This document shows, piece by piece, positions 605 through 32,000 of a stretch of DNA of 32,000 bases. Source of the DNA: Sulfolobus acidocaldarius DSM 639 (lineage in GTDB: Archaea > Thermoproteota > Thermoprotei_A > Sulfolobales > Sulfolobaceae). The notes below the pieces were generated by a model. That model ran no database searches. It saw only the letters and a program-made list of their open reading frames with translations, and was not told the origin of the DNA. The stretch covers positions 2,070,001-2,102,000 of the forward strand of contig NC_007181.1 of assembly GCF_000012285.1 (NCBI RefSeq), read 5' to 3'. A program made the translations under genes and the position numbers. Numbering within the stretch: position 1 is the first letter of the stretch; each line of letters opens with the position of its first letter.

Positions 605-1134
<530 letters not shown>

Positions 1135-1147
<13 letters not shown>

Positions 1148-3570: not shown

Positions 3571-4068
3571 TTAGATCACCTTAAAGCATTGAATATCCTC
3601 TATACTAGCTTTTCTTTCTTCTTTTGGTCTCCATACTGCCTTAACCCTCTTTCCAATAACGCTCATGTTCCTCACCTCTTCGTAGGAAACACATAGCCTG
3701 TGGAATATTCCAGGATAAACGAAGTCTCTGGGATTGGATGGAAGCAATCTTATGACTCCTACCAGTTCTGGTTCGGAAATCTTCTCCCTAGTCCAACTTA
3801 TAAAACTAGCAACTGCCGTCATTACATAGCCCTCGTCCATTACTTCTACCCAGATATCAGTGGGTCTAAAACACTCGTCACAATACATCTTAGGCGGAAC
3901 GTAAATCTTGCCGCATTTAACACATTTCCTTCCCAGAATCTTTCCCTCCTTTAGACCTAAGAGATATCTGCTTTGAGCCTGACCTGCAGTATAGGCATAC
4001 TTTGCGTTAGGTTTATATGGAATTAATACGTGCTTATGTAATTCCTCCTCTTTTAGAGAAGTAACCAC
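3571..4068 (-). CDS. DUF35-type Zn-ribbon/OB-fold protein (thiolase-associated), paralog
   Basis: 165 aa with CVKCGKIYVPPKMYCDEC. The start is GTG, preceded by GAGGTGA with a 6-nt spacer. Confidence 0.85.
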   Translation of the reverse strand: MVTSLKEEELHKHVLIPYKPNAKYAYTAGQAQSRYLLGLKEGKILGRKCVKCGKIYVPPKMYCDECFRPTDIWVEVMDEGYVMTAVASFISWTREKISEPELVGVIRLLPSNPRDFVYPGIFHRLCVSYEEVRNMSVIGKRVKAVWRPKEERKASIEDIQCFKVI

Positions 4069-4079
4069 TTCTTCTCACC

Positions 4080-6403: not shown

Positions 6404-6440
6404 TTAAAATTAAATAATTATTATTATTAAAAATTTTTGT

Positions 6441-7565: not shown

Positions 7566-7599
7566 ATTCTTAAATTAGAATTCTTGTATTTTAAAATAT

Positions 7600-7612
7600 T
7601 TGTTTTAAACAA
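7600..7612. promoter_or_regulatory. Inverted repeat TTGTTT-T-AAACAA between divergent promoters (candidate operator)
   Basis: Read directly. The repeat has 6-bp arms and a 1-nt spacer. It sits between the TATA-like elements of the dehydrogenase (7588-7599) and synthetase (about 7618-7628) genes. Confidence 0.25.
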
Positions 7613-7649
7613 GCAAAAGATAAATATAACTTTTTCTTAACTATATAAA

Positions 7650-12949: not shown

Positions 12950-13435
12950 CTATTTCGATAATTTCCAATAGGCTCTCCTAAAATATACCAAAGGCGAGAA
13001 ATCCTCTTTAAATATTTTTCCATCAATAACCTCTCCAATAATTATACTGTGGTCGCCTACATCGTGAATCTGATACTTTCTAGCCTCAAGGTAGGCGTAA
13101 CTTTGGGGAAATATGGGGGAGCCCGTTTTCCCCTCTTGGACTTCTATACCGTCAAAACGTTCCTTTACGTCTTTAAAAGCAAATATATCAAGTAGTTTTT
13201 CATTGTCAACAAAGTTTATGACGAAACCGTTACTCTCCCTGAAGGGCTTATCATTCCCTTTTATTCTATCTGCTGAAAACATGATTAGTGGAGGGTTTAA
13301 GGAGAGGGAGTTAAAGGTATTTATGGTCATACCTATATATCTTCCGTTCCAATTTGTAGTAACTATGGCTACGCCTAACGGAAAGTTCCTCATAACGTTT
13401 CTTAGCAGTTCACTCATATGATAAAATCCTCTCAA
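12950..13435 (-). CDS. Flavin reductase-like FMN-binding domain protein
   Basis: 161 aa. FPLGVAIVTT...TINTFNSLSLNPPLIMF follows the pattern of NAD(P)H:flavin oxidoreductase (HpaC-like) domains. TATA-like TTAATATAT lies about 24 bp upstream of ATG 13435. An alternative ATG is at 13417. Confidence 0.8.
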   Translation of the reverse strand: MRGFYHMSELLRNVMRNFPLGVAIVTTNWNGRYIGMTINTFNSLSLNPPLIMFSADRIKGNDKPFRESNGFVINFVDNEKLLDIFAFKDVKERFDGIEVQEGKTGSPIFPQSYAYLEARKYQIHDVGDHSIIIGEVIDGKIFKEDFSPLVYFRRAYWKLSK

Positions 13436-13520
13436 AAGGATATATTAAGTGATTTATGGAACGGGTTTTATGGATAGCTACATTTTTTAGTAAACAAGAG
13501 AAGAAATATATGCGATAAAA

Positions 13521-14297
13521 GTGAACGGAGTAGGATATTTCATATCCCATGGCTCTCCAATGATTCTTGTGGAGGAAAACCCTTGGAAAGGACACTTGGC
13601 TGACTTAGGGAAGGAAATAAAGAACAAGTACGATCCAGAGACAGTGATTATTTCAAGCCCTCACTTCTTCTCTTGGGGTGAAGGCAATTACACCGTTATT
13701 TCTAAAGACCTAAAATGTATACAAGATTACTTTGGTTTTCCAAAGGAACTTTACGAGTTCTGTTACCAGGCTGAAAATGATGTTGAACTTGCAAGTGAAC
13801 TAATAAAGGAAAGTAATGGTATGCTCAAAGTTGAGGAGAAGTGGGGACTGGATCATGGTGCATGGATCCCCCTTTATTATATGTTTCCAGAGGATAAGCC
13901 AAAAGTTGTCCCAATTTCAATCTCTTCTGCTAGTCCCAGAAGACACTATGAATTAGGTTCTATCATCAGAAAGGTCTCAGAAAAACTGGGCAGGAGGACT
14001 TTATTCATAGCCACTGGTTCACCTACACATAGGCTGGACTTACTTTACTTTAACCTTAAACCACGTGCAACGAAGTTTGACGTTTTACTTATAAAGCTCA
14101 TAAATGAGGGAAAGTTCGAGGATATACTTGACATGGATAGTAAGTATCCTAAGGAGTATTCCTCAGCGACCCCTGAAGGAGATCTGAAGACACTTCATAC
14201 TCTCCTGGGGTTTGTGAGACCTACAAAGGCTAAAGTCCTAGGATATGATATACCTTGGGCTGGCGTCAGTATGCTTAGCGCATTATTTGAAGAGTAA
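13521..14297 (+). CDS. Class III extradiol dioxygenase, LigB/YgiD (4,5-DOPA-dioxygenase-like) family
   Basis: 258 aa with a GTG start. Motifs seen are ISHGSPM, GLDHGAWIPL and GSPTHRL. Confidence 0.85.
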   Translation: MNGVGYFISHGSPMILVEENPWKGHLADLGKEIKNKYDPETVIISSPHFFSWGEGNYTVISKDLKCIQDYFGFPKELYEFCYQAENDVELASELIKESNGMLKVEEKWGLDHGAWIPLYYMFPEDKPKVVPISISSASPRRHYELGSIIRKVSEKLGRRTLFIATGSPTHRLDLLYFNLKPRATKFDVLLIKLINEGKFEDILDMDSKYPKEYSSATPEGDLKTLHTLLGFVRPTKAKVLGYDIPWAGVSMLSALFEE

Positions 14298-14348
14298 AAC
14301 AATAAAAAATAAGAGAGAAGATGGGTCACTTAGTAATCATATCAATGC

Positions 14349-14669
14349 TTAAACTACTTCCCTGAAAGTCTCTACTCCTGCGTCTTCATTAAAGCGGACA
14401 TAGAACTTATACTCCCTACCACCTCTCTTGGAGACACATGTCCTGCCACTACTGTAGTTTCCATTTATCACTAACTCGTCAATCCTATCCCAACCTGTTC
14501 TCTTCTTAACCTCCCTTAGCATATTTACGAACTCGAGAGCGCATATATCACAACAGAAGAAGAGTTTTTCCCCATCTATCTCCTCATAGTAGTCTCCCCA
14601 AGTTCCTCCACAAAGTGCACAACCAGTTTCTTTAGTTCCTGCTGTCCTACCATTTACAGTTATTTTCAT
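14349..14669 (-). CDS. Small Cys-rich putative metal-binding protein
   Basis: 106 aa with CALC...CCDIC (two CxxC knuckles 19 residues apart). An ATGA overlap couples it to the upstream gene. It possibly resembles the Thermoplasma Ta0938-type Zn protein, but this is unverified. Confidence 0.6.
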
Positions 14670-15580
14670 AAGTTATACACCTTCTTTACTAACTCAGGTT
14701 CTATTTCAAAACCTCTCTCTAATCTTGCTAATAAATATTTCGAAAAGGCATCAAAGGACCTTAGTACAATAATTTGAGCTTGCTCTTTTAATCCCAATTC
14801 CTCAGCATACTTCTCTCCAAGTTTTAATGCTTCAGAGGCATGGGATACATCAGCCTCATATCCTTCCCTCAAGAAATCTTTTACCTCTTGAGGGTACCTA
14901 TCTGAGGAAAGTATCTCAGGATTGAAGTAATGGACTTTGGCACCGTATTGCCTTAAACTTCTGTCAGCTACTAATTCTAAGCTATGCATAGCGAGCATAG
15001 TTTCTAACCATGTTCTTGTCTCAGCCACTCTTCTCCAGAAATTTATTGCGTTTCTGGTACTTGGTAAGGGAGTCATAGAGAGAATTTTCTCCCGTGGCAT
15101 CCCTAAAGACTCTCCCATCCTAAGGAGTAGCTCATAATGTGATGGTCTTACCCCATAGCCTATGAACTCCACCTTAATATTTTCAAGTTCATATTCCATT
15201 ACATCGTCCTTATCAGTCTTAAATACTATAGCAGATAGTACCTTCACCCAGTTTTTAAGAAAGTGTTGATGCTCTATAACGTAACCTAGCAGAACACCTC
15301 TTGTAGGATTTTGCATGGCTGAAATGAAAGGATGAGGGTTTTCTCCGTAAAACCTCTCTATAAATCTCTTTCTTATCCATGATGATAGCTCTGCGGGTTG
15401 ACTGAAGAAATTCTCAAGAGAAACCTTTAGCTCTTCCCTGTTCATTCTTTCATAACTTAAATTTCGATTGAGCCACATAACATGGGACGGGTCACTCTTA
15501 GAGTTTGCCATTAATTCAATATGACCAGCTAAATCTCCCCACGTCTCAAATTTCATCTCACATGAGGGACATAAAGGCAT
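14666..15580 (-). CDS. Heme-oxygenase-like (PqqC/TenA/CADD-type) putative diiron redox enzyme with N-terminal C2H2-like zinc finger
   Basis: 304 aa. The N-terminus is CPSC-x12-H. It is followed by [40 protein letters not shown] and EADVSHASE, which resemble the E / ExxH helix pattern of iron-containing redox enzyme family proteins. Confidence 0.65.
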
Positions 15581-15820
15581 ACATAAACTATTAACATGGT
15601 AAAATAAAAATTAAGTATTAAAATAAACATTTATAAATTGAAAGTAGAAGTCAATTTTTTCTTATAGAGATAAACTATATGACCAATTTTCATTTCTAAT
15701 CAGACTGTATTTTCAGTAGTTTATAAATAGAGTGTGTAGTGACTTCTAATTATTGTTTTAAACGATTATATCATTTTTCTATAGCTAAAAATATAAACAA
15801 CTCACATAAATTAATAGAGT

Positions 15821-16660
15821 ATGGGCTATATAGATGCACATACTCATGCGTGGTTCAGGGAATTCTTACCTCAAAATTTTTCCTCAAAAAATGCAGGTTA
15901 TGAGTTTAAGCCTCCTTCTCTTCAACAAGTCCTAAAGGAAATGGACTCAGCGAACATTGACTACATAGTTATCATAGCTTATCCAGCAAGAGAACTGTGG
16001 AATATTGATGAAAGTATTGCTATCCAGGCTATAGACTTTCTTAAACCCTATGGCGAAAGGTTCTCAGTTGTAGGTGGTATAGAACCTAACAAGCTTACTG
16101 TTGAAGAGACCAAATATTGGCTGGGAAAACAATACGAAAAAGGAGTAGCTGGCTTTAAACTGCATCCCGTACATAGCTGGGTAAAACCTAACGCTTATAG
16201 AGAAGAAGAGGGAGGACTTAAACAGTTGGAAATAATGTATCAGTTTGCAGAGGATCATAACTTACCTGTAATAATTCACACAGGTACCAGTATGTTCTTA
16301 AGGGCAAGAAATAAGTACGGCGATCCCATATATATCGATGATGTTTCTGTAGACTTTCCCAGGCTGAAGATAGTAATGGCTCATATGGGAAGACCTAACT
16401 GGGTTCCCACTGCTTTTCAGTTATGCCGAATTAGAAGAAACATATACGCGGAAATCTCATCTATACCACCAAAGAAGATTTTGGATTATTTGCCAAGAAT
16501 TGAAGAAATTTCAAATAAAACAATTTACGGAAGTGATTATGGTGGACCAGGTACAAAGGGACTTGCAGAAAATTTGAAAGAGTTCTTGTCATTAAACATT
16601 GAAGGAAAGGAAGACATAGCTGATAAAAACCCAAGATCTCTCTACAAGACTCTGAAATAG
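15821..16660 (+). CDS. Amidohydrolase_2 (metal-dependent TIM-barrel hydrolase/decarboxylase) family protein
   Basis: 279 aa. Metal-ligand pattern motifs seen are IDAHTHAW, KLHPVH, IHTGT, AHMGRP and YGSDY. TATA-like AAATATAAA lies about 28 bp upstream. Confidence 0.85.
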   Translation: MGYIDAHTHAWFREFLPQNFSSKNAGYEFKPPSLQQVLKEMDSANIDYIVIIAYPARELWNIDESIAIQAIDFLKPYGERFSVVGGIEPNKLTVEETKYWLGKQYEKGVAGFKLHPVHSWVKPNAYREEEGGLKQLEIMYQFAEDHNLPVIIHTGTSMFLRARNKYGDPIYIDDVSVDFPRLKIVMAHMGRPNWVPTAFQLCRIRRNIYAEISSIPPKKILDYLPRIEEISNKTIYGSDYGGPGTKGLAENLKEFLSLNIEGKEDIADKNPRSLYKTLK

Positions 16661-16759
16661 TTTCGCTATGCAGACCTCTTCTTTATAGTATATTATTCTA
16701 AATTTTGTAAAAAATATAAAATTAAAGATTTAAAAAGACTTAGGTTCTAATTATTCTTT

Positions 16760-17572
16760 ATGGACAGGATTAAGGTTATTGACGCCCATGTCCATTATCA
16801 TATTTATAAAGGCTTAATCCCTGATGAATGTAAAGGATTTCTAAGGTACACAAAAGATACTAAGATGACACTGAGTAACGATTGGGTGGAACTAGATAAA
16901 ATACTCCTGGTACCATCCCACCCCTGTTATACCAGAGAGTGCTACGACGGTTTTTACATAGATTATGAGGAGAGAAAGAGAAATCCTGACTTATATTTAC
17001 AGTGGGGCGAGGTAAACCCCTTAACCTGTAATGTTAAGGAGGAATTAGAGAAGCAATACTCACTAGGAATTATAGGAATAAAACTACATCCACCTCATCA
17101 CGGTTTTAAACCTAACGGTTACAGGGAAGAAGAGGGAGGGCTAAAGTCCTTATTGTACATCTACGAGTTTGCCCAAGATCACGACTTACCTGTCATGATA
17201 CACACAGGAACGAGCATAGAGGGTGCCACGAGAAATAAGTATTCTGACCCAATATTAATCGACGATGTAGTGAAGGACTTTCCAAAACTTAAAGTAATCA
17301 TAGCCCATGCAGGGAGACCCATATGGTACACTACCGCCTTTTATATGGCTAAATACTTTGACAACGTGTATTTAGAGATATCCTCTATTCCTCCGAGAAA
17401 TATACTGAAGTACTTACCTAATTTGCTCACCATACCTGAGAAAGTAATATATGGTAGCGACTTTCCTGCATATGTGGGGCAAGATTTAGCAGAGTATGCC
17501 CATCAGATTTATGAAGTGGTAAAGGACAGGAGGATATTGAGGGATAATATTTTACGGCTTATCAAGTTTTGA
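16760..17572 (+). CDS. Amidohydrolase_2 family protein, tandem paralog
   Basis: 270 aa with IDAHVHYH, KLHPPH, IHTGT, AHAGRP and YGSDF. Long blocks are identical to the upstream gene, for example YREEEGGLK, HTGTS and EISSIPP. Confidence 0.85.
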   Translation: MDRIKVIDAHVHYHIYKGLIPDECKGFLRYTKDTKMTLSNDWVELDKILLVPSHPCYTRECYDGFYIDYEERKRNPDLYLQWGEVNPLTCNVKEELEKQYSLGIIGIKLHPPHHGFKPNGYREEEGGLKSLLYIYEFAQDHDLPVMIHTGTSIEGATRNKYSDPILIDDVVKDFPKLKVIIAHAGRPIWYTTAFYMAKYFDNVYLEISSIPPRNILKYLPNLLTIPEKVIYGSDFPAYVGQDLAEYAHQIYEVVKDRRILRDNILRLIKF

Positions 17573-18931
17573 GCTATTCTGAAGTGACCTAGATAGGTCT
17601 TTAGTAGCCCTTATTATATTCACATAACCTGTACATCTGCAAATGTTCTTTATTGCATATTTCATCAAATCCTCGTCTGCATCAGGATCGACATTTGTCA
17701 AGTAGTCATAAACAGTCATCATAAAACCATGGGTACAGTATCCACACTGCATTGCGTAATTCCTAAGAAAAGCGTCTTGAACTAACTGCTTGGTCTTTAA
17801 ACCTTTAATTGTCACTATATTCTTCCCAGAGAACTGAATAGCGAATGCATTACATGACTTTATAGCCTTTCCGTCCACTAAAACTGTACATGCACCGCAC
17901 TTCCCCTCATCACAGCCCCTTTTTACTTCTGTAAACCCATTCTGTCTCAGAAAGTCAATGAGTAGAATTCTCGGTTCCACATTCAGAGGAATTTCCTCCC
18001 CGTTCACAGTTAAGCTATACTTAGACCCAGAGTGATTATTTGGCGTATTCACAATTTCTTTTGAGGGAAGTTTAATGTCAGAATACCCCATAAGCGTTTT
18101 AACTAACAAATTCCTAGTAAGCTTAAGTCTATAGCTCTTACTGGCATGGATATCATTTATAACCTTCTCATCCCTCTCCGCAATGATCTTTTCAGCAATC
18201 GAGTCCAAATCTGCCCTCCTCCTTATCTCGTCCACCTTTTCTCCTAAAAACAGATCCCTGATTAAAACAGGTTTCTCGAACACACCTCCAATAGCGATCT
18301 TTGAACTTACTACAACTCTATCCTCAGAGAGCTCTAGATTAACTGCAACTAGACATGTTGGATATGAAGCTCCTCCTCTTTTGACCACATTAAAGTTTAG
18401 CCAATACTCACTGTTCTTCTTTACGGGTATTTCGATCTCCTTTATTATTTCTCCATGACTTAACGCTGTGGTATAGGGGAATAAGTAGAAGTCTTCAATG
18501 TTAATTGACCTACCACTACTTAGTATAACCTTGCCCTCTAATGTAAATAACACCGGGAAATAATTTCCTGAGGGGTCTGCGTGAGCGATAGAGCCCCCTA
18601 TAGTTCCCTTATTCCTCACTTGTAGGTCTGCTATAACCCAAGATGCCTTTGCTAGGGACGGGTACCTTTGCCTTATAATATGATTGGTCGCAATTTCATT
18701 ATGAGTTAAGAGAGAGCCAATCCTGAGCTTATCTTCCTCTAACTTTACATATTTTAGCTCGTCTAGGTCATTGAGATCAACTAGTGTGTCTACATTTATT
18801 ATCCTTAATTTCATCATAGGAACTAAACTTTGACCTCCTGCTAATGGTCTAGCGCCCTCATTTTCCTTTAACAGGTCTAGAGCCTGTTGTAAGTTTGAAG
18901 GTCTGTAATACTTAAACTGGGCTGGGATCAC
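17552..18931 (-). CDS. Mo-hydroxylase medium (FAD, CoxM-like) and small (2x[2Fe-2S], CoxS-like) subunits fused in one polypeptide
   Basis: 459 aa. The N-terminus has F.Y..P..L..AL..L...ARPLAGGQSLVPMMKLR and GTIGGSIAHADP. The C-terminus has GCDEGKCGACTVLVDG...SC and QCGYCTHGFMM...CRCTGY. The GTG start is preceded by a GGTGA SD and abuts the large-subunit stop. Confidence 0.9.
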   Translation of the reverse strand: MIPAQFKYYRPSNLQQALDLLKENEGARPLAGGQSLVPMMKLRIINVDTLVDLNDLDELKYVKLEEDKLRIGSLLTHNEIATNHIIRQRYPSLAKASWVIADLQVRNKGTIGGSIAHADPSGNYFPVLFTLEGKVILSSGRSINIEDFYLFPYTTALSHGEIIKEIEIPVKKNSEYWLNFNVVKRGGASYPTCLVAVNLELSEDRVVVSSKIAIGGVFEKPVLIRDLFLGEKVDEIRRRADLDSIAEKIIAERDEKVINDIHASKSYRLKLTRNLLVKTLMGYSDIKLPSKEIVNTPNNHSGSKYSLTVNGEEIPLNVEPRILLIDFLRQNGFTEVKRGCDEGKCGACTVLVDGKAIKSCNAFAIQFSGKNIVTIKGLKTKQLVQDAFLRNYAMQCGYCTHGFMMTVYDYLTNVDPDADEDLMKYAIKNICRCTGYVNIIRATKDLSRSLQNSSKLDKP

Positions 18932-21259
18932 TTACTTCACCCCGTCTTCAATGAGTCCCATTATAATTTCGGGGGTTATAGGTATCTGGGTAATCCTTTT
19001 TCCTATTGCGTCTGAAACTGCATTGGCTATGGTTGCAGGAACTCCCATAATCGGACCTTCTCCTGACCCTAATGCCTTTGAGGGAATATAATTAATATCG
19101 CTTTCAAAGTGATGAATATCTACTTCAGTATGTAACATTTCGGAGAAAGTAGGGGTTTCATATGCATCAAAGGTAGTTATTAGTGGATTACCATTTTCGT
19201 CGTAAGCCAACCTCTCGTATAAGCTCATAGCTATCCCATGCAGTAAACTTCCATACATCTGACTTTCTAACAGTTCTCTTTTTAGTATTCTCCCCACGTC
19301 ATGAATTATAATGTATTTCTCCACCTTAACATCATAAGTAATGGGGTCTATCCTGACTACGGCGAGATGAGCTTGAATGGAATACCCTAGGGAGGAATTT
19401 ATCTTATCCCCCTCTGGTGGTGCTAGATACGGAGAATTGTAGAAAGAAACTACAGATAGACTCCCTGGATTTGAGTAGGGGTCCCAGTGGAAAGCTGACG
19501 CAAGTGTTTTTAAATCTACTGACTTAGTGGAATCTTTTTTAGCGTAAAATTTGCCATTCTCGTAGTAAACTTCTTCAGTCTCAAGGAACCTTTTGGCTAC
19601 ATCAGATAACTTGTCCTTTAATTCGTTACATGCCTTAAGGACACCGGTTATAACTATTGGAGCGAAACGGCTGGAATAACTACCACTGGCTATTGTCCAC
19701 GGAAGAGAGGTATCAACTCTATTCTCTACCTTCACTCTACTGACATCTATTCCAAACTCTTTAGCTACGACTTCCGCTGTGACAGTCTCATGACCTAGCC
19801 CTTCATTAGTACCATTTATAAATACACTAATACTTCCATCAAAATTAAGGGACATTATGATGTAATCCCCAGAAGCTGAATGTTTGTGTCTCCTCTTGGA
19901 TCCCTCAAGTGCCAAATCCACATAACCTAAATTAGTTCCGCTCGGTTCTAGGAAAAGAGATACTCCAATTCCTGTAAGAGGCTCTCTTTTTATTTTACTA
20001 TACTCTTCCTCCAAAAGTTTAAGAACCCTAATGTAGTCCTGTCTGGGATATAGTCCTCCCGTAGGAGTTTCATAAAAGTAGTCACTGTTAATCCTCTTGT
20101 TGAATTCAGTGATTACATTTCTTTTTCTAATTTCAATTGGACTTATTCCTAATTCTTCCGCTAACTTGTCTATAGTGGTCTCTAATGCAAAGTAAAATTG
20201 TGGGGCTCCATAAGCCCTGTTTAAACCTGTGGGAGATTTATTTGTAAGGACGACCGTGTGGTTTACTTCAATGTTACGTACATCGTAAGCTCCATTTAAA
20301 TTACCGTGAACTCTAAACAGAGCCCCTGGCTCTGGTGGTCTTGGATAAGCTCCTACATCCTCGAAGAAGGCATACCTTATCCCCTTTATTTTTCCTTCCT
20401 TATCACTAGCTATTTCTACATACCCCTCTCTGTCTCCACTTGACGAACTATATAGAAAACTCTCTGTCCTACTCTCGATCCATCTAACAGGGTGATTAGA
20501 TAGAATAGAAGCTGCTGCAGCTATAGTCATGTAAGGATAAAGTGAATACTTTACTCCAAAACTACCCCCAATGTCCCTAGGGGTCGAAAGCTTGATCCAG
20601 TTTAATGAAATACCCAATGCACGGCTAATAAAGTAAGCTTCCAGCATCGGACCTTGAAAGTTAGCTACTATATTTAATGTATCAGTTTTGTAAGCAAGAA
20701 CACCATAACCCTCGAGGGGCAAAGCCGAGTGTTTAGTGACCTTAAATTCGTTCTTTATCACCACAGGCGATTCTGAGAAAGCCCTTACCATATCACCATA
20801 GCTCATTTTACGATTTACAGCAATATTACTTCCTAACTCCTCATGTACTAGAGCTTTCTTATCTAGGGCTTCTCTCACGCTTGTTACAGCCGGCAAAGGG
20901 TCTACTTCGACATTAACATAGTCCAGAAGATCGACTGCCTTATATAAATCTCTAGCTAAAACTATGGCTATAGGTTCGCCCACAAACCTAACCTTGTCCT
21001 TAGCCACTGCATAGTATTTTATGGGTAAGTCAACACCCAAAGGGAATGGGTTCTTGATAACCTTCAGTAATTCCTGGTTCGTGTAAGCTATTCCGCCGTG
21101 GTTAAAGACCTCACTAACATCTACTTTTTTGATAACTCCGTGGGGTAAATTACTCCTATATATAGCCATAAATAGGGTTCCAGAGGGATTGGGTATATCA
21201 TTAATAAACTCTGAAGAGCCGTTAACGACCCTGGAACCCTCTACATAGTGAGTGCTCAT
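18932..21259 (-). CDS. Xanthine dehydrogenase/aldehyde oxidase-family molybdopterin-binding large subunit (CoxL-like, not a true CO dehydrogenase)
   Basis: 775 aa with the DIGGSFGVK Mo-cofactor motif. The active-site loop reads [16 protein letters not shown] and lacks the Cys-containing VAYRCSFR signature of form I CODH. Confidence 0.9.
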
Positions 21260-21391: not shown

Positions 21392-21649
21392 CTACTTTTC
21401 ATTCCCACATACTGACAGTATGGATTTGAGTATTAGGTCTTCCTTGCCTTTACCCTTACCCATTGAAATATATTCTATTACCTCTTCTATTAGCTCTCTG
21501 ATCTTATCACTATCTTCATTACAAAATCTATTCTTCATTTCATGGTCATCATTCAATCTCTCCTGAATGTATTTCTCTATAGACTCTTGCTCAACAACTT
21601 CCCTTATAAAGTTCCTCATCAACGCATATTTATAAAATTGTGACTCCAC
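21392..21649 (-). CDS. Small acidic helical hypothetical protein
   Basis: 85-aa ORF with a GTG start. TATA-like TTTATAAT lies about 24 bp upstream. I recognise no motif, so the coding status is uncertain. Confidence 0.35.
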   Translation of the reverse strand: MESQFYKYALMRNFIREVVEQESIEKYIQERLNDDHEMKNRFCNEDSDKIRELIEEVIEYISMGKGKGKEDLILKSILSVCGNEK

Positions 21650-21713
21650 AAATTTGGGTAGATTTATATCATTATAAAGCTATTATTATTAATTTAGAAT
21701 ACCACATTAACTC

Positions 21714-22904
21714 ATGGAAAGAAAATTAGGGTTCATATTCGACCACAGTAAGTGTATTATATGTAATGCTTGCGTTGATGCTTGCAATAAGGCTTACGGT
21801 GGTTTGAACTGGAGAAGCTTGATTGTAATGCCCTACGAAGAGACTAAAACTGCCCTTTCCATAGCGTGCAACCATTGTGATAATCCAGTTTGCATGAACG
21901 TTTGTCCTGCAAATGCCATAACAAAGAACGAGATGGGGATAGTGCGAATAATAGAGGATAACTGTATAGGCTGTGGTTTCTGCACATGGGCATGTCCCTA
22001 TGAGGCGTTAAAGATAACCCCGAGCGGTATAATGAGCAAATGTCATCTCTGTTATAATAGGATAGGAAGTGGTCTCCCCTATTGCGTTGAAGCATGTCCC
22101 ACTGGAGCACTGACATTTGGCTGGATAGAAAAAGGAGATGCCAATGTAAATTACTTAGCGCCTGAAGATATAACTGAACCTAGATTCGTTATTAAGAAAC
22201 CTGAGAAGGCTGAAACTATAAAGGTTGAAACTCTTCATCGAAAGAAAGAGGAGAATTACATAGGATTACTAGCTTTCACCATAGCCAGCGAGTTAGCCTT
22301 AGGTTACTCCATTTTCAAGTTGCCATACTGGAATTTAGTTGGTCTTATACTACCCCTAGTGTCATTATTGCTCTCAGTGAACCACGCAAAGAGATTTGAC
22401 AGGTTTTACAGAGTGATTTACAATTTGAAGACTTCGTGGTTAAGTAGAGAGGTATTATTCTCCTCCATATCGGTATTATTCTACCTCATCTCCTTCTTCA
22501 ATCAGTTATTTTACTATCCTGCTGTAATATTCTTAGGGTTGGGCGTACTTTCAAGTATCATGATATATATACTAAAGGCGAGACCATCTTGGTACAACCC
22601 TGACACACCAGTATCATTTATAGGCTCGATTTTCACAACCTCTCTCCCATTACTGTTCTACCTAACTCATGAGGTTTTCATAATACCAGCTTTAATTGTA
22701 GTACTGGGAGTTGAGATACTTACAGGCTATAAGAAATCAAGGACTAGGGTAATACTGAACGCGGTCTCTATAGCTCTGTCACTACTTTCTATACCTCTCC
22801 CCTTCATTATTTTAGCAGATGAAATAGTAAACTTAGTATCTGAGGTAAGCCACAGGATTCAGTTCTATCAAAAAGTTGTATATTACGGCTTGCCCAAAGT
22901 TTAA
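21714..22904 (+). CDS. Fusion of a DmsB/NrfC-type four-cluster Fe-S protein with a DmsC-type polytopic membrane anchor
   Basis: 396 aa. Four Cys groups are present: CIICNACVDAC, CNHCDNPVCMNVCP, CIGCGFCTWACP and CHLC..CVEACP. About 7 hydrophobic helices follow, with the loop NHAKRFDRFYRVIYNLKTSWLSREVLF resembling the DMSO-reductase anchor subunit family. Confidence 0.85.
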   Translation: MERKLGFIFDHSKCIICNACVDACNKAYGGLNWRSLIVMPYEETKTALSIACNHCDNPVCMNVCPANAITKNEMGIVRIIEDNCIGCGFCTWACPYEALKITPSGIMSKCHLCYNRIGSGLPYCVEACPTGALTFGWIEKGDANVNYLAPEDITEPRFVIKKPEKAETIKVETLHRKKEENYIGLLAFTIASELALGYSIFKLPYWNLVGLILPLVSLLLSVNHAKRFDRFYRVIYNLKTSWLSREVLFSSISVLFYLISFFNQLFYYPAVIFLGLGVLSSIMIYILKARPSWYNPDTPVSFIGSIFTTSLPLLFYLTHEVFIIPALIVVLGVEILTGYKKSRTRVILNAVSIALSLLSIPLPFIILADEIVNLVSEVSHRIQFYQKVVYYGLPKV

Positions 22905-22953
22905 ACATTTTTCATAATAGACTTTTTAAACATCGAATACTATATATTTCTCA

Positions 22954-22959
22954 AGGTGG
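22954..22959 (+). promoter_or_regulatory. Shine-Dalgarno-like AGGTGG before the porG TTG start
   Basis: It lies 7 nt upstream of TTG 22967. The same GGTG-type motif precedes the other internal operon genes in this window. Confidence 0.35.
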
Positions 22960-22966
22960 TCAATTA

Positions 22967-23530
22967 TTGCTCGAAATAAGATTCCACGGTAGAGGTGGTC
23001 AAGGTGTCGTTACGGCTTCTCACCTACTGGCTGAAGCAGCAGGTTATGATAACTTATACTCTTCATCATTCCCCATATACGGGGCTGAGAGAAGAGGAGC
23101 CGAAATAGAGGCATATTGTAGAATTTCTGATAGTCAAATCAGGGTTACGTCTCCAATACAGGAACCTGATTACGTTGTAGTTCTAGATGGTTCCCTCCTA
23201 CATCTTTCAAACAATGTTTATAGAGGTCTAAAGTCTAACTCCGTAATTCTTGCTAACTACGGTTCTGAAATTAAGACAGATAAGAAAATAATTACTGTAA
23301 ACGCTACAAAGGTAGCCTCGGAACTAGGCTTAATTAGATCAGGTTGGCCTATGGTAAATGTAATAATGTTAGGTTCTTTGATCAAACTTACTGGAATGCC
23401 AAGTATTGAGTCACTTGAAAAGGCAATTAGAGATGAATTTGATGATAAGCTAGCAGAGATCAACATGAAAGGAGTAAGAAAGATGTATGAACTAGTAGAG
23501 GGGAGGAGGTACAATGTCCTTACTACTTGA
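22967..23530 (+). CDS. porG: 2-oxoacid:ferredoxin oxidoreductase, gamma subunit (substrate not assignable)
   Basis: 187 aa with a TTG start and the FHGRGGQGVVTAS motif. Confidence 0.85.
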   Translation: MLEIRFHGRGGQGVVTASHLLAEAAGYDNLYSSSFPIYGAERRGAEIEAYCRISDSQIRVTSPIQEPDYVVVLDGSLLHLSNNVYRGLKSNSVILANYGSEIKTDKKIITVNATKVASELGLIRSGWPMVNVIMLGSLIKLTGMPSIESLEKAIRDEFDDKLAEINMKGVRKMYELVEGRRYNVLTT

Positions 23531-23780
23531 TTATCAATACTTTCCAATAACAAAGCCCGGTAAGGGCGCTGGAGGTAAGACAGGTTCCTGGAGAGTGGTT
23601 AAGCCTGTTGTAGATTTGAGTAAGTGTATAGGTTGCAAGGCTTGTTTCATGTTCTGTCCAGAATCCACCATAGTTCCCAAAGGAGGGAAAGTCACAGTTG
23701 ACTATGAGTATTGTAAGGGATGTGGGGTTTGTTCGAATGTTTGCCCTGTAAAGGCAATAAGTATGGTGAGTGAGACATGA
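23514..23780 (+). CDS. porD: 2-oxoacid:ferredoxin oxidoreductase, delta subunit (2x[4Fe-4S])
   Basis: 88 aa with CIGCKACFMFCP and CKGCGVCSNVCP. GGAGGAGGT precedes the ATG. The gene overlaps porG by 17 nt. Confidence 0.9.
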   Translation: MSLLLDYQYFPITKPGKGAGGKTGSWRVVKPVVDLSKCIGCKACFMFCPESTIVPKGGKVTVDYEYCKGCGVCSNVCPVKAISMVSET

Positions 23781-24970
23781 TCAGGAAAATTATTTCAGGA
23801 AACGAAGCAGTAGCCACTGCAGTAAAGTTAGCTAGAGTAGGATTAACAGGAATTTACCCAATAACACCACAGACTTCAATAATAGAGAAATTGGCTGAAA
23901 TGAAAGCTCAAGGAGAAATACAGACAGAGATAGTTAGAGTTGAGAGTGAACACTCAGCGATGGCTGCAACATATGGCGCTGCACTAGCTGGTATAAGGGC
24001 TTTTACAGCTACTGCATCACAGGGACTTCTTTATATGCACGAAATGGTGTGGTGGGTAGCTGGAAGTAGAGTTCCAGTAGTGATGGTTGTTGGAACTAGG
24101 GCAGTTGGAGCACCGTGGAACATTTGGAACGAACATACTGACTTTACAAGTGAGAGGGACAGTGGTTGGATAATGGCGTTTGCAAGTAACCCACAGGAAG
24201 CATTAGACTTGACTATTCAGGCTTTTAGGATTTCTGAAGACGAAAGGGTATTCTTGCCTGTAATGGTGGGGATGGACGGGTTCATTCTATCACACACTAA
24301 GACTAACGTGCTAATACCTGACCAAGAGCAGATTGATGATTACTTGCCACCTAGGAGGCAGCCATATGTAATTGATCCTGAGGACCCAGTGGAAATAGGA
24401 AATATGTTTCCTCCAGAGGGTTATATGAAATTGAGGGAGTCAATCCATCTTGCACTGAAGAATTCTGAAGACATAATCAGGCAGCACGGCAGAGAATATA
24501 ACAAGAAAGTTTCCCCTATGATTGATTATTCCACCCTTAATTCTAGCTATAGGTTGGAAGATGCTGACTATGCTGTAGTATTAATGGGAGCTTGGGCAGG
24601 AGATGCTATGGAAGCTATAGATGTTCTCAGGGAGAAGGGAATAAAAATAGGTATGTTGAGAGTGAGATACTTGAGACCATGGAGCGAAAAGGAGATTAGG
24701 GAGAATCTAGAAGGTAAGAAGGGAGTTCTGGTACTTGACAGGAGTACTAGCTTTGGCAGAGGAGGACCATTGTACATAGAAGTTAAGTCTACTATTCGGG
24801 ACACAGAAGTTAAAGATATAGTCACTGGACTGGGTGGAGTTACAGTTGGTAAGAGTGATATGATATATCTGTTCTCCAAGTTTGTAGAGGGCATAAAAGA
24901 GGATGTAACCTGGTATTATCCAAAAGAGGTGGGAAAACTTGACGTTAGGACTCCGAGAGATATTGAATAA
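23777..24970 (+). CDS. porA: 2-oxoacid:ferredoxin oxidoreductase, alpha subunit
   Basis: 397 aa with GNEAVA...GIYPITPQT...ESEHSAMAA. An ATGA overlap joins it to porD, and a GGTGAG SD precedes the start. Confidence 0.9.
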   Translation: MIRKIISGNEAVATAVKLARVGLTGIYPITPQTSIIEKLAEMKAQGEIQTEIVRVESEHSAMAATYGAALAGIRAFTATASQGLLYMHEMVWWVAGSRVPVVMVVGTRAVGAPWNIWNEHTDFTSERDSGWIMAFASNPQEALDLTIQAFRISEDERVFLPVMVGMDGFILSHTKTNVLIPDQEQIDDYLPPRRQPYVIDPEDPVEIGNMFPPEGYMKLRESIHLALKNSEDIIRQHGREYNKKVSPMIDYSTLNSSYRLEDADYAVVLMGAWAGDAMEAIDVLREKGIKIGMLRVRYLRPWSEKEIRENLEGKKGVLVLDRSTSFGRGGPLYIEVKSTIRDTEVKDIVTGLGGVTVGKSDMIYLFSKFVEGIKEDVTWYYPKEVGKLDVRTPRDIE

Positions 24971-25829
24971 ACACAATTCACTTATATCAGGTACAGCAGC
25001 CTGTCCTGGATGCCCAGAAAATATGGCAATGAGAATGTTGGGGATGGGACTAGGAAAGGATACGGTAGTTGTAGTTGTAGCAGGCTGCTCATCCATAATA
25101 CAAGGTAATGCACCTTATAATTCCTATAATTTACCTGTAGTAAACATAGCATTTGCAGCTGGTCCTGCAGCTGCGTCAGGACTTGCTAGAGCATATAAAC
25201 AAAAGGGTAAGGATGTGAACGTGGTAGTATGGGCTGGGGATGGAGGGACTGCAGATATAGGATTTGCGTCATTAAGTGGTGCTGCAGAGAGAAATGAGGA
25301 TATAATCTACGTATGTGTGGACAATGAAGCCTATATGAACAGTGGAGGACAGAGAAGTGGTTCCACGCCATTGGGCGCAATAACTTCTACCACCCCAGAA
25401 GGCAAGAAAGAAAATAAAAAGAACCTTCCCTTCCTTATGGTATCTCACAACGTGCCTTATGTTGCTACAGCAAGTGTAGGGTATCCTCACGATTATATTC
25501 AGAAGTTAAAAAGAGCAAAGGAAATTGATGGCTTTAGGTATATACATGTGCTTACCCCCGATCCATATGGATGGCTATTTGACCCATCGAGGACTGCTGA
25601 AATAGCTAAGTTAGCAGTGCAGACGTGTTATTGGCCGTTATTTGAATATTACAATGGTAAAATAACAGTAAGTCAAGAGTGTCTTCACTGTTTAGACAAG
25701 AGGACAAGAAGACCAATTAAGGACTTTCTGTCTGTGCAGGGTAGATTTAAGAGAGTAAAGGAAGATGATATAGCCAAACTGGAGAAATATATAGATGATA
25801 TGTGGGAAAAGATAAAGGAGCTAATGTAA
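24939..25829 (+). CDS. porB: 2-oxoacid:ferredoxin oxidoreductase, beta subunit (TPP-binding)
   Basis: 296 aa with CPGCPE and the GDGGTADIG TPP motif. TTG 24939 is preceded by GAGGTGG (5-nt spacer). An in-frame TTG 24963 is an alternative start. Confidence 0.88.
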   Translation: MTLGLREILNKHNSLISGTAACPGCPENMAMRMLGMGLGKDTVVVVVAGCSSIIQGNAPYNSYNLPVVNIAFAAGPAAASGLARAYKQKGKDVNVVVWAGDGGTADIGFASLSGAAERNEDIIYVCVDNEAYMNSGGQRSGSTPLGAITSTTPEGKKENKKNLPFLMVSHNVPYVATASVGYPHDYIQKLKRAKEIDGFRYIHVLTPDPYGWLFDPSRTAEIAKLAVQTCYWPLFEYYNGKITVSQECLHCLDKRTRRPIKDFLSVQGRFKRVKEDDIAKLEKYIDDMWEKIKELM

Positions 25830-29322: not shown

Positions 29323-30048
29323 CTACGACATTAACTTATGTAATGAATTAGATAGGTGTTTTAAAACTATAACTGTAACTAAAGGTAAAATAACATAGGC
29401 AATAAACACTACTTCCCACGAAAACGTCGTCAATAAAACCACTCCAGCGGTCTCAATTGAAGTTGCCAGCAATACGGGTATGGAAACGCAACAACTTGCT
29501 CCCACCAAAATTCCGAGCATGGGAACGAGTGCTAAGTACTTCAATCTCCTTCTAGTTGAAATCACAATCATTAAGCTTGACGTCACTAAAAAAGAGATCA
29601 GCAGACCCATGGAAATTGAGTAAAACGATAGCTCTATGACCAGTTGATTAGATAAGTGAATTAGTAAAGTGGGATTTAATATTAGAGATAGAGCTAGACC
29701 CGTCAAACTTGGCGATACACTAAAGGGTGTGGTGTAAATTCCTAAAGGTGGACCTACATATAGTACGTTATTACCTTGAGTAAACTGACCTAATAATAGC
29801 TCAATAGCAAGGCTGTATACAGCATAATGCACTACTAAGTAAAGGAAAAATATTATCCATTTAATCTTGTCTTTACCGAAGATAACCAGTTTTGCCTCAT
29901 CGCTTAGTGCAGTACGTAGAACTAAAATGGTTGTGAATATCCAGAATATAGTTAGAGGCACTAATTGGCTTAGAGGAAATAGGTAAGTAAGTAAAAGGCT
30001 TCCAAATATTATAGGCAAATACGGAAGAACATTTACGAGGGATTTCAC
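29323..30048 (-). CDS. Polytopic membrane protein, unknown function (possible distant paralog of 28550..29113)
   Basis: 241 aa with a GTG start and about 7 hydrophobic helices. HYAVY and an intramembrane GASCCVS motif are present. Confidence 0.55.
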   Translation of the reverse strand: MKSLVNVLPYLPIIFGSLLLTYLFPLSQLVPLTIFWIFTTILVLRTALSDEAKLVIFGKDKIKWIIFFLYLVVHYAVYSLAIELLLGQFTQGNNVLYVGPPLGIYTTPFSVSPSLTGLALSLILNPTLLIHLSNQLVIELSFYSISMGLLISFLVTSSLMIVISTRRRLKYLALVPMLGILVGASCCVSIPVLLATSIETAGVVLLTTFSWEVVFIAYVILPLVTVIVLKHLSNSLHKLMS

Positions 30049-30161
30049 ATTATTTAATCATTATTTCAAATTAATAAATCTTACTTAATCTAGAATAAAA
30101 TTGTGTTAAAGAGAATGTACCAACTGTTAATAAAAAAGAGAAAAAATATATGACTTTCCCT

Positions 30162-30608
30162 TTAGTCCGTGAAGTACATTTTATATATTAAGTAAATTAT
30201 TGAGCCAAATACAAAAACGTCAGCTGATGCTAATGCGCCTATTAAGAATTCATATGAAATGGTCATCATTAAATACGTTATGACTACTCCTGCAATTAGA
30301 TCCATGACTAGAGCTATGTAATAGTAAGTTACTGTACTTATTCTCTTTACCTCCGTAGTTGTTGAAGGAGCTCTAAATCTAACTGCAAGAAATACAATAC
30401 TCCCCATAAATATGGCGAAAACGATTCCAGCAGCCAAATATGTGGCTGTGTAAAGATTCTCCACATAACTACTGATTGGACTTGACGTTAAATATGCTAA
30501 TTTGCCGAAATCACCAACCCACTCAAAAGCAACAAAGAATGCTACGACAGTAACTACCCACCATATATAATCCTTTAAAGTCAGTCTCTTCCTATTATTA
30601 GCGTCCAT
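30162..30608 (-). CDS. soxI: Small hydrophobic subunit downstream of oxidase subunit II (SoxI-like position)
   Basis: About 148 aa with 4 predicted TM helices. ATG 30608 is preferred over the track's TTG 30614 because GGTGAG lies 6 nt upstream of the ATG. Assignment rests mainly on gene order (cyt b, then subunit II, then small membrane protein). Confidence 0.5.
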   Translation of the reverse strand: MDANNRKRLTLKDYIWWVVTVVAFFVAFEWVGDFGKLAYLTSSPISSYVENLYTATYLAAGIVFAIFMGSIVFLAVRFRAPSTTTEVKRISTVTYYYIALVMDLIAGVVITYLMMTISYEFLIGALASADVFVFGSIIYLIYKMYFTD

Positions 30609-30610
30609 TC

Positions 30611-31051
30611 TCAACTCACCACTATGAGAGTTCCTTTCATGGTGTAATGACCAGGACCGCAGAATTCAGCACACCATATATCATATGTGCCTGGCGTCTT
30701 CACCACTATATAGAAGTCGTACACATATCCAGGGATAGCCTCAAACTTAAACCCTAACTGCGGTATATAGAACGCATGAATGACATCCTTTGACTGTATT
30801 TCCAGCAAATAGGTCTGATTAGCCTTAAGCACTAGCTTGTCTATAGTGGTAGTTCCGTTAGGATATACAAACTCCCAAGCGTATTGAAAAGCTATGACCT
30901 TAATAGGTATCGCATCTTGTTTCTGTTGCGCTGACAAATAATTACCACTGTTTATAAGAGCTAAATATCCATCCGATATAACACCTAATACGATTAAAAC
31001 AACTGCTGCAAGAACTATAGTTGTTAATTCTAATATTCTACCTCTTTCCAT
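30611..31051 (-). CDS. soxH: Terminal oxidase subunit II with a complete CuA site (SoxH-like)
   Basis: It has an N-terminal TM and a cupredoxin domain with HAFYIP...CAEFCGPGHYTM (H...CxExCGxxHxxM CuA ligands). ATG 31051 is preferred over the track's TTG 31057 because GGTGA lies 6 nt upstream. Confidence 0.85.
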   Translation of the reverse strand: MERGRILELTTIVLAAVVLIVLGVISDGYLALINSGNYLSAQQKQDAIPIKVIAFQYAWEFVYPNGTTTIDKLVLKANQTYLLEIQSKDVIHAFYIPQLGFKFEAIPGYVYDFYIVVKTPGTYDIWCAEFCGPGHYTMKGTLIVVS

Positions 31052-32000
31052 AACCAATCACCACGTTCAGAAATATGGATAATGAAAACATAATCATGGA
31101 TAGACCTATATATTGACCTATTATAAATTGATTAGCTAATGAAGTCATGGGTATTGTTAATGCTTGATATAGAGAGTAGATCAGCGTACCTAGGATGAAG
31201 AGATTCATTGATAGAACCAATGCTCCACTAAGAACTCTTTTCTCAGGCTTTATTGTCATTATACCGCCGTCTCTAAATGGTGAACTACTCATTTTCGCCA
31301 ACACCCTTGGCTGTACAACGTATCTGAGTAAGGGCCATAGAACTGCAAAACAGGCTATGAATATAATTGCGTCCACAACTAGACCTATGGTACCAATCTC
31401 TTGACCTGGAGTTTCCTCTGCCCAAATGGTATTTACTATGAATGCTATTATGAATCCTGTACCTAAAGATACTGCGGCAGGTCTGAGTCCTGGATGAGGA
31501 GCCTTATGCCTAAATACATAAGCATCTATAAATGGGAATAGTACAGTGACTGCTACCCAGCCTAAGAATATTATTGAGGCACTACTGGGATCTATTGCTT
31601 TGTAGAAGAAGTAGATGAATAAGAAATACCAGTCTGGTAATGGAGGTGCTTGGGCAGCGTTTATAGGATTGTACTCCGGTTTAACGTATTTAAGCACAGT
31701 ACCGCTAACAGAAATATCAAAGGGTATCATAGATGCAATGAAGAATATTATCCCGAAGGTTAATAGGAAAATCATTACTACCATACCTATAGATCTTATT
31801 AGAGGTTGTAGCTCCCATCTGTAGTCAGACTTCAGCTTGTCTTGATACTCGTCTATTAACTCAGGTGCACCGGGCTTAACTTCAGAAACTGGTGGAGTTA
31901 TACCGTGTTTCTCGAATATATATAGGTGAAGCCCAACGACAGCTACTAATAACCCGCCAACTATCCAGTGGAAAACAAAAAACCTTTGAACCAAAGGATC
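31038..32000 (-). CDS. soxG: Cytochrome b-like subunit (SoxG-like), 5' end outside the window
   Basis: The reading frame is open to the window edge, so the TTG at 31994 is an artefact of truncation. FHWIVGGLLVAVVGLH gives the H-x13-H heme-ligand spacing of a cytochrome b helix. Multiple TM helices follow. Confidence 0.8.
   Translation of the reverse strand, partial: DPLVQRFFVFHWIVGGLLVAVVGLHLYIFEKHGITPPVSEVKPGAPELIDEYQDKLKSDYRWELQPLIRSIGMVVMIFLLTFGIIFFIASMIPFDISVSGTVLKYVKPEYNPINAAQAPPLPDWYFLFIYFFYKAIDPSSASIIFLGWVAVTVLFPFIDAYVFRHKAPHPGLRPAAVSLGTGFIIAFIVNTIWAEETPGQEIGTIGLVVDAIIFIACFAVLWPLLRYVVQPRVLAKMSSSPFRDGGIMTIKPEKRVLSGALVLSMNLFILGTLIYSLYQALTIPMTSLANQFIIGQYIGLSMIMFSLSIFLNVVIGYGKR

Follow-up and report, generated by a model that had tools for sequence, protein, structure and literature searches.

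A DmsB-DmsC-type fusion adjoining a four-subunit 2-oxoacid oxidoreductase in Sulfolobales: a possible cytoplasm-facing outlet of electrons to quinone

In DmsABC of Escherichia coli and PsrABC of Thermus thermophilus, a catalytic subunit with molybdenum-bis(pyranopterin guanine dinucleotide) (Mo-bisPGD) works with a ferredoxin-type subunit B of four Fe-S clusters and with a cofactor-less membrane anchor C of eight helices, whose quinone site lies on the side of the Fe-S domain. In the anchor DmsC this site comprises Ser62, His65, Ser82 and Glu87; substitution of His65 blocks quinol oxidation, mutants show the importance of Glu87 for the coordination of quinone or quinol, and Glu267, Arg271 and Tyr275 belong to a putative ion path or half-channel (PMC8076601). 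The same 2021 review names only molybdenum, haem c or NiFe catalytic subunits as partners of NrfD/DmsC-type quinone modules and describes a single inverted NrfD-like system, the sulfite:quinone oxidoreductase SoeABC, which is presumed to be oriented toward the cytoplasm and to act as a quinone reductase (PMC8076601). Here we analysed a locus of the archaeon Sulfolobus acidocaldarius DSM 639 in which such a module adjoins a catalytic partner of another kind. In the stretch of 32,000 nucleotides studied (contig NC_007181.1, positions 2,070,001 to 2,102,000; called the window in the following), a single polypeptide of 396 amino acids (aa) joins an Fe-S domain to a membrane domain and is followed on the same strand by porG, porD, porA and porB. 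A first-pass annotation had read this arrangement from the sequence, and all of its open reading frames (ORFs) were found (Table 1).

The fusion shares with DmsABC and PsrABC the four-cluster ferredoxin fold with its Cys pattern, the fold of the anchor, the quinol-site residues together with the Glu, Arg and Tyr of the putative half-channel, and the location of the quinone site on the side of the Fe-S domain. It differs from them in that B and C, which are separate subunits there, form one chain and no Mo-bisPGD catalytic subunit is encoded nearby. Moreover, it lacks the hallmarks of export by twin-arginine translocation (Tat), its predicted orientation is inverted and it is expected to reduce quinone rather than to oxidise quinol. 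SoeC, which we compared by its description, has eight helices and the same His65/Glu87 site (PMC8076601), and the combination of such a site with the N-side orientation of SoeABC is also predicted for the fusion. However, B and C are separate proteins in SoeABC and are joined there by a molybdopterin catalytic subunit, SoeA, whereas the fusion locus is devoid of a molybdopterin oxidoreductase gene and the neighbour is a 2-oxoacid oxidoreductase dependent on thiamine pyrophosphate (TPP).

Our preferred interpretation, to which we assign a probability of roughly 0.6, is that the fusion represents the electron-transfer/quinone module of a dimethyl sulfoxide (DMSO) reductase-type enzyme that lost its molybdenum partner and became tied to a delta-containing four-subunit oxidoreductase. 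With the same probability, and with its function read from the genomic context, it would face the cytoplasm and transfer electrons to caldariellaquinone, with the 2-oxoacid oxidoreductase or ferredoxin as their source. A quinone-reducing outlet of this kind had been put forward in the first-pass annotation, and the context of the orthologues, the identity of the anchor, the predicted topology and the linkage to por all agree with it. We infer a partnership between fusion and oxidoreductase, be it physical or functional, as well as the direction of the electrons and the identity of the quinone.

The Fe-S half contains 16 Cys residues in four groups (C14, C17, C20, C24; C52, C55, C60, C64; C84, C87, C90, C94; C110, C113, C124, C128), a number that suffices for four [4Fe-4S] clusters. 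The four groups quoted earlier were thus present, and all 16 residues were invariant among 52 homologues that included archaeal and bacterial fusions. Pfam Fer4_11 matched the fusion protein with an E value of 4.3e-19 (69 bits vs. a cutoff of 26.2), E. coli DmsB aligned with the Fe-S domain in hhalign at E 4.7e-39, and the PsrB chain 2vpw_B was matched by Foldseek at E 2.9e-9 with a template modelling (TM) score of 0.72. The NCBIfam equivalog model for DmsB, TIGR02951, reached 104.4 bits (E 6e-30), below its cutoff of 214.1; a score of about half the cutoff marks the domain as related to DmsB but not as a DmsB itself. When solved structures were searched by sequence, the Fe-S domain alone was matched and no DmsC-type chain was found.

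In NCBIfam, residues 8-136 of the fusion also matched positions 8-136 of PadI (E 3.2e-20). PadI is the beta subunit of phenylglyoxylate oxidoreductase and carries an extra N-terminal Fe-S domain; the match indicates that domains of this type can be employed by 2-oxoacid oxidoreductases, the class to which PorGDAB belongs. In phenylglyoxylate:NAD+ oxidoreductase this polyferredoxin-type module extends the electron wire of the oxidoreductase core to a particular acceptor, as is proposed here for the fusion. Unlike the fusion, however, the PadI carrier is soluble, leads to NAD+ through PadH and is not known to have a quinone-binding membrane domain. PorE and PorF, encoded in the por operons of Methanococcus, are soluble polyferredoxin-type carriers that extend the wire to hydrogenase-type donors and are not known to have a quinone-binding membrane domain either.

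For the membrane half, about seven helices had been counted from the sequence; the AlphaFold2 (AF2) model of the fusion shows eight transmembrane helices (TM1 to TM8), with a predicted local distance difference test score (pLDDT) of 93.3 and a predicted TM score (pTM) of 0.90. Among the 52 full-length homologues, 43 were matched by PF04976 (DmsC), with a best E value of 1.5e-24. A profile of the orthologues aligned with E. coli DmsC in hhalign over 106 columns (85% probability, E 6.5e-6), and the membrane part of the AF2 model matched the PsrC chain 2vpw_C in Foldseek (E 1.6e-3, probability 1.00, TM score 0.62), with ActC (6f0k_C) as a weak further match (E 0.33). By these three independent lines, namely PF04976 in homologues, profile alignment and predicted fold, the membrane half is placed among the anchors of the DmsC/NrfD fold. 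A separate profiling of the two halves, as had been suggested, hence succeeded directly for the Fe-S half with Fer4_11, and for the membrane half through homologues, hhalign and fold but not by a direct match.

S221, H224, S241 and E246 of the fusion align with Ser62, His65, Ser82 and Glu87 of E. coli DmsC with identical spacing, and these four residues form the predicted quinone site. The loop YNLKTSWLSREV, which had looked DmsC-like already at first reading, aligns with the quinol-site motif Ser82-Glu87 of DmsC. Across the 52 archaeal and bacterial fusions H224, S241, W242, L243, S244, E246, Y285, E377 and R381 were invariant, and S221 was nearly so among 16 sequences of the Sulfolobales type. 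The segment covers the last part of TM2 and the loop that leads to TM3, on the Fe-S side of the membrane, which is predicted to be cytoplasmic. In addition, E377, R381 and Y385 align with Glu267, Arg271 and Tyr275 of DmsC.

The orientation was assessed from the N-terminus and from the charges of the loops. The N-terminus, MERKLGFIFDHSKC, reads as a sequence without a twin arginine and without a hydrophobic signal. On the modelled helices, all 16 orthologues placed 13-18 Lys and Arg residues in the loops of the Fe-S side and 0-2 on the opposite side. In E. coli DmsC, used as a control, the bias was opposite and weaker, with about 5 Lys and Arg on the periplasmic DmsB side vs. 8. Tat-dependent export as in DmsABC does not fit a protein with this inverted bias and no twin-arginine motif; both features lead to the prediction, in agreement with the earlier claim for the Fe-S domain, that this domain and the quinone site face the cytoplasm.

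The por genes were assigned by family profiles. PorG matched TIGR02175 (PorC_KorC) with 220.8 bits vs. a cutoff of 81.1 and Pfam POR at 7e-37, and PorD matched TIGR02179 (PorD_KorD) with 112.3 bits vs. 60.05. PorA was recognised by Pfam POR_N (1.9e-69) and PFOR_II (3e-27), while its 395.9 bits for NCBIfam PorA_Arch were under the cutoff of 550. PorB scored 486.8 bits for the PorB model NF008819 and 428.2 for the VorB-type model NF008818, the cutoff being 405 in both cases. By these profiles the product of porG-porD-porA-porB is a four-subunit 2-oxoacid:acceptor oxidoreductase. The POR enzymes (pyruvate oxidoreductases) purified from S. acidocaldarius and Saccharolobus solfataricus are of the two-subunit type without delta (PMC9405506), and the four-subunit enzyme therefore appears uncharacterised. 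The two-subunit 2-oxoacid:ferredoxin oxidoreductase belongs to the same superfamily, occurs in the same organisms and is the known source of reduced ferredoxin; it is soluble, insensitive to O2, uses zinc-ferredoxin and has no delta, whereas the enzyme studied here keeps delta and gamma separate and is linked to a membrane protein. Aerobic Sulfolobales oxidise pyruvate and other 2-oxoacids by ferredoxin-dependent enzymes, for which ferredoxin is the established acceptor (PMC2946596). How the ferredoxin is re-oxidised in these archaea had been called unsettled in the first-pass annotation, which agrees with the statement of Iwasaki in a 2010 review that the route was still to be established (PMC2946596).

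Ten loci of the Sulfolobales type were then compared, as a sample rather than a census: those of the window, S. solfataricus, Metallosphaera sedula, Metallosphaera yellowstonensis, Sulfurisphaera ohwakuensis, Acidianus brierleyi, Candidatus Acidianus copahuensis and Candidatus Aramenus, as well as a metagenome-assembled genome (MAG) of the Sulfolobaceae and a metagenomic contig. The por genes were located directly 3' of the fusion in 10/10 loci. All four of them were found by tblastn in 9/9 genome loci; for the metagenomic contig, gene calls existed for porG, porA and porB, and an uncalled gap occupied the expected position of porD. A DmsA homologue was found within 6-8 kb of the fusion in none of the ten loci, and none was detected in the 32-kb window, as had been noted before; the best tblastn match of E. 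coli DmsA there had an E value of 0.18 over 40 aa. Orthologues of the fusion are thus normally neighbours of por and not of DmsA.

The genes flanking this block vary from locus to locus, and the linkage of fusion and por has been kept despite the rearranged flanks. It is missing from the nearest outgroup por operons: the closest relatives of PorA outside the Sulfolobales, with 52-53% identity, belong to Caldisphaera and Acidilobus, which are anaerobic Acidilobales, and no fusion was found upstream of porGDAB in these operons. Within the Sulfolobales clade members of the fusion family were at least 47% identical, vs. at most 35% in bacteria (about 30% being typical), and the protein of S. acidocaldarius strain SUSAZ was 96% identical to that of the window. 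For PorA and for the small ORF upstream of the fusion, S. acidocaldarius proteins with 100% identity were found. As a separate observation, two genes that do not occur as a pair in the Sulfolobales loci follow porGDAB in the Acidilobales outgroups; one encodes a MoxR-type AAA ATPase, the other a VWA/CoxE-like protein.

Bacterial DmsB-DmsC fusions (from Bacteroidota, Acidobacteriota, Bacillota and others) have the same architecture and the same invariant residues as the archaeal ones, but differ in their neighbour, since a molybdopterin oxidoreductase adjoins in all bacterial relatives examined. When B and C are fused, the molybdopterin subunit has no Tat signal; when they are unfused, it has one (RRSFLKW). 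With partners lacking Tat signals, the bacterial fusions would therefore face the cytoplasm, too. Two bacterial loci carry nitrite reductase genes (nirBD-like or NIR_SIR) next to the fusion and its molybdopterin partner, and one of these two has nitrate ABC-transporter genes as well. The pairs at nitrite reductase genes most likely donate electrons from quinol to a cytoplasm-facing nitrate reductase of the assimilatory type, so that the electron flow is most likely opposite to that considered for the archaeal fusion. Judged by gene content and signal sequences, the fused form appears to face the cytoplasm and to connect an enzyme located there with the quinone pool. We read the Sulfolobales form as one in which a 2-oxoacid oxidoreductase has taken the place of the molybdenum partner. 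We found no description of the pairing of a bacterial fusion with a nitrate reductase of the assimilatory type.

In the mechanism that we propose, a 2-oxoacid (pyruvate, a branched-chain or another one) would be oxidised at the TPP of PorAB, and the electrons would run over the cluster of PorB to the two clusters of PorD. From there they would enter the fusion at its four-cluster wire, without an intermediate or via the soluble zinc-ferredoxin, and would arrive at the quinone site (S221, H224, S241, E246) on the cytoplasmic face. Caldariellaquinone would be reduced with protons from the cytoplasm and the quinol re-oxidised by terminal oxidases; in sum, the system would amount to a 2-oxoacid (or ferredoxin):quinone oxidoreductase bound to the membrane. 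The donor has a potential of roughly -500 mV and the quinone of roughly +100 mV, and from these values the electrons are expected to flow toward the quinone. An oxidative role also fits the catabolic genes found in the window and in several related loci.

Several observations weigh against this interpretation. All synteny evidence comes from one archaeal order, and part of it may reflect shared ancestry. The membrane half of the window protein gave no match in Pfam or NCBIfam, permissive thresholds included (PF04976 none at E <=10), and homology was therefore shown via orthologues, profile comparison and fold. If electrons dropped in one step from about -500 mV to the level of the quinone, about +100 mV, much energy would be wasted unless the transfer is coupled, and complex I-like enzymes have also been proposed as oxidisers of ferredoxin. 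Further points arise from the spacer between the fusion and porG. A first T5 run (22908-22912) lies directly after the stop codon of the fusion and a second one at 22923-22927, where a TATA-like box, TTTTTAAA, extends over 22923-22930; they are followed by TATATATT at 22941-22948, the Shine-Dalgarno-like AGGTGG at 22954-22959 and the TTG start at 22967. When the ten spacers were compared (window 22905-22966 and loci L002, L004-L006, L009-L012 and L089), 10/10 had kept a T-run after the fusion stop and, at a distance of about 20 nt from it, a TATA-like box, the box being located approximately 25-40 nt ahead of the porG start. This conservation suggests that por probably has its own promoter. 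The spacer would probably comprise a terminator and then the por promoter, with read-through possible, and the fusion may be monocistronic, unlike the overlapping porG-D-A-B.

The T5 runs, TATATATT, AGGTGG and the TTG start had all been placed correctly in the first-pass annotation, in which the fusion headed the por operon. Adjacency and gene order held, but a shared operon is doubtful in view of the conserved T-run and TATA-like box, and a single fusion-por operon was downgraded for this reason. In loci with a TTG start of porG, a GGTG-like Shine-Dalgarno motif was mostly kept; in M. sedula and A. brierleyi the spacing is compatible with a leaderless GTG start. TATATATT was considered as a promoter element of por and dropped, as it is not conserved and is too near the TTG.

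A separate transcript of the fusion, as suggested by the conserved spacer signals, would suit an alternative that we regard as rather unlikely though worth serious consideration: the fusion could be a general ferredoxin:quinone oxidoreductase, a membrane electron sink shared by several enzymes, without a dedicated complex with PorGDAB, and it would lie next to por owing to co-regulation in a catabolic island. It would oxidise soluble zinc-ferredoxin and perhaps also several cytoplasmic Fe-S dehydrogenases, such as hydroxylases of the xanthine dehydrogenase (XDH) family and the two-subunit and indolepyruvate oxidoreductases. Ferredoxin is, after all, the established acceptor of Sulfolobus 2-oxoacid oxidoreductases (PMC2946596). 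The window also holds the indolepyruvate-type genes iorAB, thiolases, an acyl-CoA synthetase and a LigB dioxygenase, and catabolic redox genes are loosely enriched around the fusion, with an XDH-family paralogue within about 7 kb in 6/10 loci and an acyl-CoA dehydrogenase nearby in 7/10. Invariant neighbourhood, however, is limited to por (10/10) and a small ORF (9/10), and the XDH-family neighbours are different paralogues (29-63% identity) that vary in position and strand. That the closest por operons without the fusion belong to anaerobes, which do not have this respiratory chain, is compatible with a shared sink as well as with a dedicated partnership.

The variation in paralogue, distance and strand also weakens the link to the molybdenum hydroxylase, which the first-pass annotation had offered as another electron source, and this partner was downgraded. 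The hydroxylase as such was seen divergently upstream of the fusion, where Pfam recognised an L subunit and a fusion of the FAD (flavin adenine dinucleotide) and 2Fe-2S parts. In this XDH-family hydroxylase (17552-21259, minus strand) the medium FAD subunit and the small 2Fe-2S subunit are fused to a protein of 459 aa, the start of which directly abuts the stop of the gene for the 775-aa molybdenum subunit. An orthologue with 63% identity was located downstream of porB in Candidatus Aramenus (L009).

In an extension of the dedicated fusion-por partnership, the fusion and PorGDAB would form a stable membrane complex, a 2-oxoacid:caldariellaquinone oxidoreductase that conserves energy. Its inverted NrfD-like domain would translocate protons and capture part of the drop of approximately 600 mV between the clusters of the oxidoreductase and the quinone, and E377, R381 and Y385, the counterparts of DmsC Glu267, Arg271 and Tyr275, would form a half-channel. 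We consider this extension improbable. If true, it would be a new respiratory entry complex that takes over, for these substrates, the roles of 2-oxoacid dehydrogenase and of complex I, and it would explain the disposal of low-potential electrons in aerobic thermoacidophilic archaea.

Public annotations label the orthologues either as '4Fe-4S dicluster protein' or as 'DmsC/YnfH molybdoenzyme anchor'. Taken literally, the second label ('DmsC/YnfH family molybdoenzyme membrane anchor subunit') implies an ordinary anchor whose DmsA-like partner is encoded elsewhere in the genome, the adjacency of por being functionally meaningless. The molybdopterin neighbours of the bacterial relatives speak for such an assignment, and our inspection of the S. 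acidocaldarius genome covered 32 kb. Nevertheless, it is very improbable, given por in 10/10 loci vs. DmsA in 0/10 and the sharp separation of the Sulfolobales clade from the molybdoenzyme-linked bacterial fusions; furthermore, the DmsA-like/DmsB-like pair of S. solfataricus is separate and has an Fe-S subunit of its own (SSO2794/2795, COG0437/COG0243; PMC2739297). Hardly credible is a reverse flow, in which caldariellaquinol would be oxidised and the proton gradient would drive electrons uphill to PorD for a 2-oxoacid (pyruvate) synthase in carbon assimilation: NrfD-type modules such as Psr can run endergonic, gradient-dependent reactions (PMC8076601), the half-channel residues E377, R381 and Y385 are conserved and several carriers of the locus are autotrophic (Metallosphaera, Acidianus), but about 600 mV per electron is on general thermodynamic grounds far beyond one or two translocated protons, and the locus, which is surrounded by catabolic genes, shows the same degree of conservation in S. 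acidocaldarius and Saccharolobus, both heterotrophs.

Searches by guessed locus tag and by concept returned no published account of the fusion gene or of a membrane-anchored oxidoreductase of this class, and the S. solfataricus tags SSO7412 and SSO1209 were found in the literature as table entries only. Thus, what is new here is probably the combination of a known electron-transfer/quinone module with a new catalytic partner and an inverted orientation, as far as the compared sequences allow us to judge. If the dedicated partnership of the fusion with the 2-oxoacid oxidoreductase is correct, it would constitute a new class of respiratory entry point, in which a quinone module was recruited by a TPP-dependent oxidoreductase. 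It would also mean that such modules are exchangeable among catalytic partners without a common origin, and the 'molybdoenzyme anchor' annotation would have to be corrected throughout the order. The genetic tractability of S. acidocaldarius permits a direct test of the hypothesis.

Besides por, the small divergent ORF is the most constant companion of the fusion. Homologues were present in 9/10 fusion loci (the window, L002, L004, L005, L006, L009, L010, L011 and L089), always divergent and 42-106 bp upstream of the fusion. The family members are acidic, helical proteins of about 80 aa with the N-terminal motif ME(T/S)xFYxxALxRNF; M1, F5, Y6, A9, L10, R12, N13, C43 and C81 were invariant. All 30 clusters of the family came from Sulfolobales or unnamed metagenomes and nearly all were labelled 'hypothetical'; no Pfam family and no fold match in the PDB were found, and the AF2 model consists of five helices (pLDDT 92). 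The small ORF is probably part of the fusion module and may encode a regulator, an assembly factor or a small additional subunit. In the divergent spacer (21650-21713) two TATA-like elements stand back to back, CTTTATAA on the minus strand at about 21671-21678 and TTATTATT at about 21683-21690. In Sulfolobus the distance from TATA box to start is approximately 26 nt, and by this measure the two elements would be spaced as promoters of two leaderless transcripts.

Table 1. Features of the fusion-por locus and of the compared loci. Positions refer to the window unless a locus (L) or residues of the fusion are given.
Feature	Position	Strand	Description
DmsB-DmsC-type fusion	21714-22904	+	ORF, 396 aa, ATG start
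Fusion Fe-S domain, residues 1-170	21714-22223	+	DmsB/PsrB-type ferredoxin, four Cys groups
Fusion membrane domain, residues 183-396	22260-22901	+	DmsC/NrfD fold, eight helices
Helices TM1-TM8	residues 183-200, 206-222, 242-259, 264-284, 297-318, 323-338, 343-358, 365-386		AF2 model
Predicted quinone-site segment (S221, H224, S241, E246)	22374-22451	+	
Fusion/porG spacer	22905-22966	+	62 nt
porG, gamma subunit	22967-23530	+	ORF, TTG start
porD, delta subunit	23514-23780	+	ORF, 17-nt overlap with porG; product with two [4Fe-4S] clusters
porA, alpha subunit	23777-24970	+	ORF, 4-nt overlap with porD
porB, beta subunit	24939-25829	+	ORF, 32-nt overlap with porA; product binds TPP and one [4Fe-4S] cluster
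Small conserved ORF	21392-21649	-	85 aa, GTG start, divergent from fusion
Small ORF/fusion divergent spacer	21650-21713		64 bp, AT-rich
MoxR/VWA pair	L092 8263-10768; L093 9351-11883		
Bacterial fusion loci	L090 7001-10671; L091 5268-10743; L007 5949-9332; L013 3855-6972		

Further genes of the window are listed here for completeness. A second member of the 2-oxoacid oxidoreductase superfamily within the same 32 kb is the indolepyruvate-type pair iorAB (581-2988, minus strand), with an alpha subunit of 617 aa (POR_N, TPP_enzyme_C and Fer4 domains) and a beta subunit of 188 aa (POR domain). A catabolic island covers 3136-9509 and 12950-17572. Two thiolase-like genes occur there together with genes for two ChsH2-type zinc-ribbon/OB proteins. 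The island further comprises an acyl-CoA dehydrogenase, an acyl-CoA synthetase, a flavin reductase, a LigB-type ring-cleavage dioxygenase and two amidohydrolase_2 genes, as well as a TENA/PQQC-family protein that has an N-terminal C2H2 zinc finger (14666-15580). Comparable genes of the thiolase and acyl-CoA kinds also border the fusion locus of A. brierleyi and that of the Sulfolobaceae MAG. Downstream, a partial terminal-oxidase cluster occupies 29323-31994 on the minus strand and presumably resembles a SoxM-type cluster. The CuA-type oxidase noted there before was confirmed by the CuA motif CAEFCGPGHYTM in the ORF at 30611-31057; the cluster contains a subunit II-like protein of 148 aa with this motif, a membrane protein of 150 aa and, beside the edge of the window, an ORF of 318 aa for a multi-helix membrane protein.

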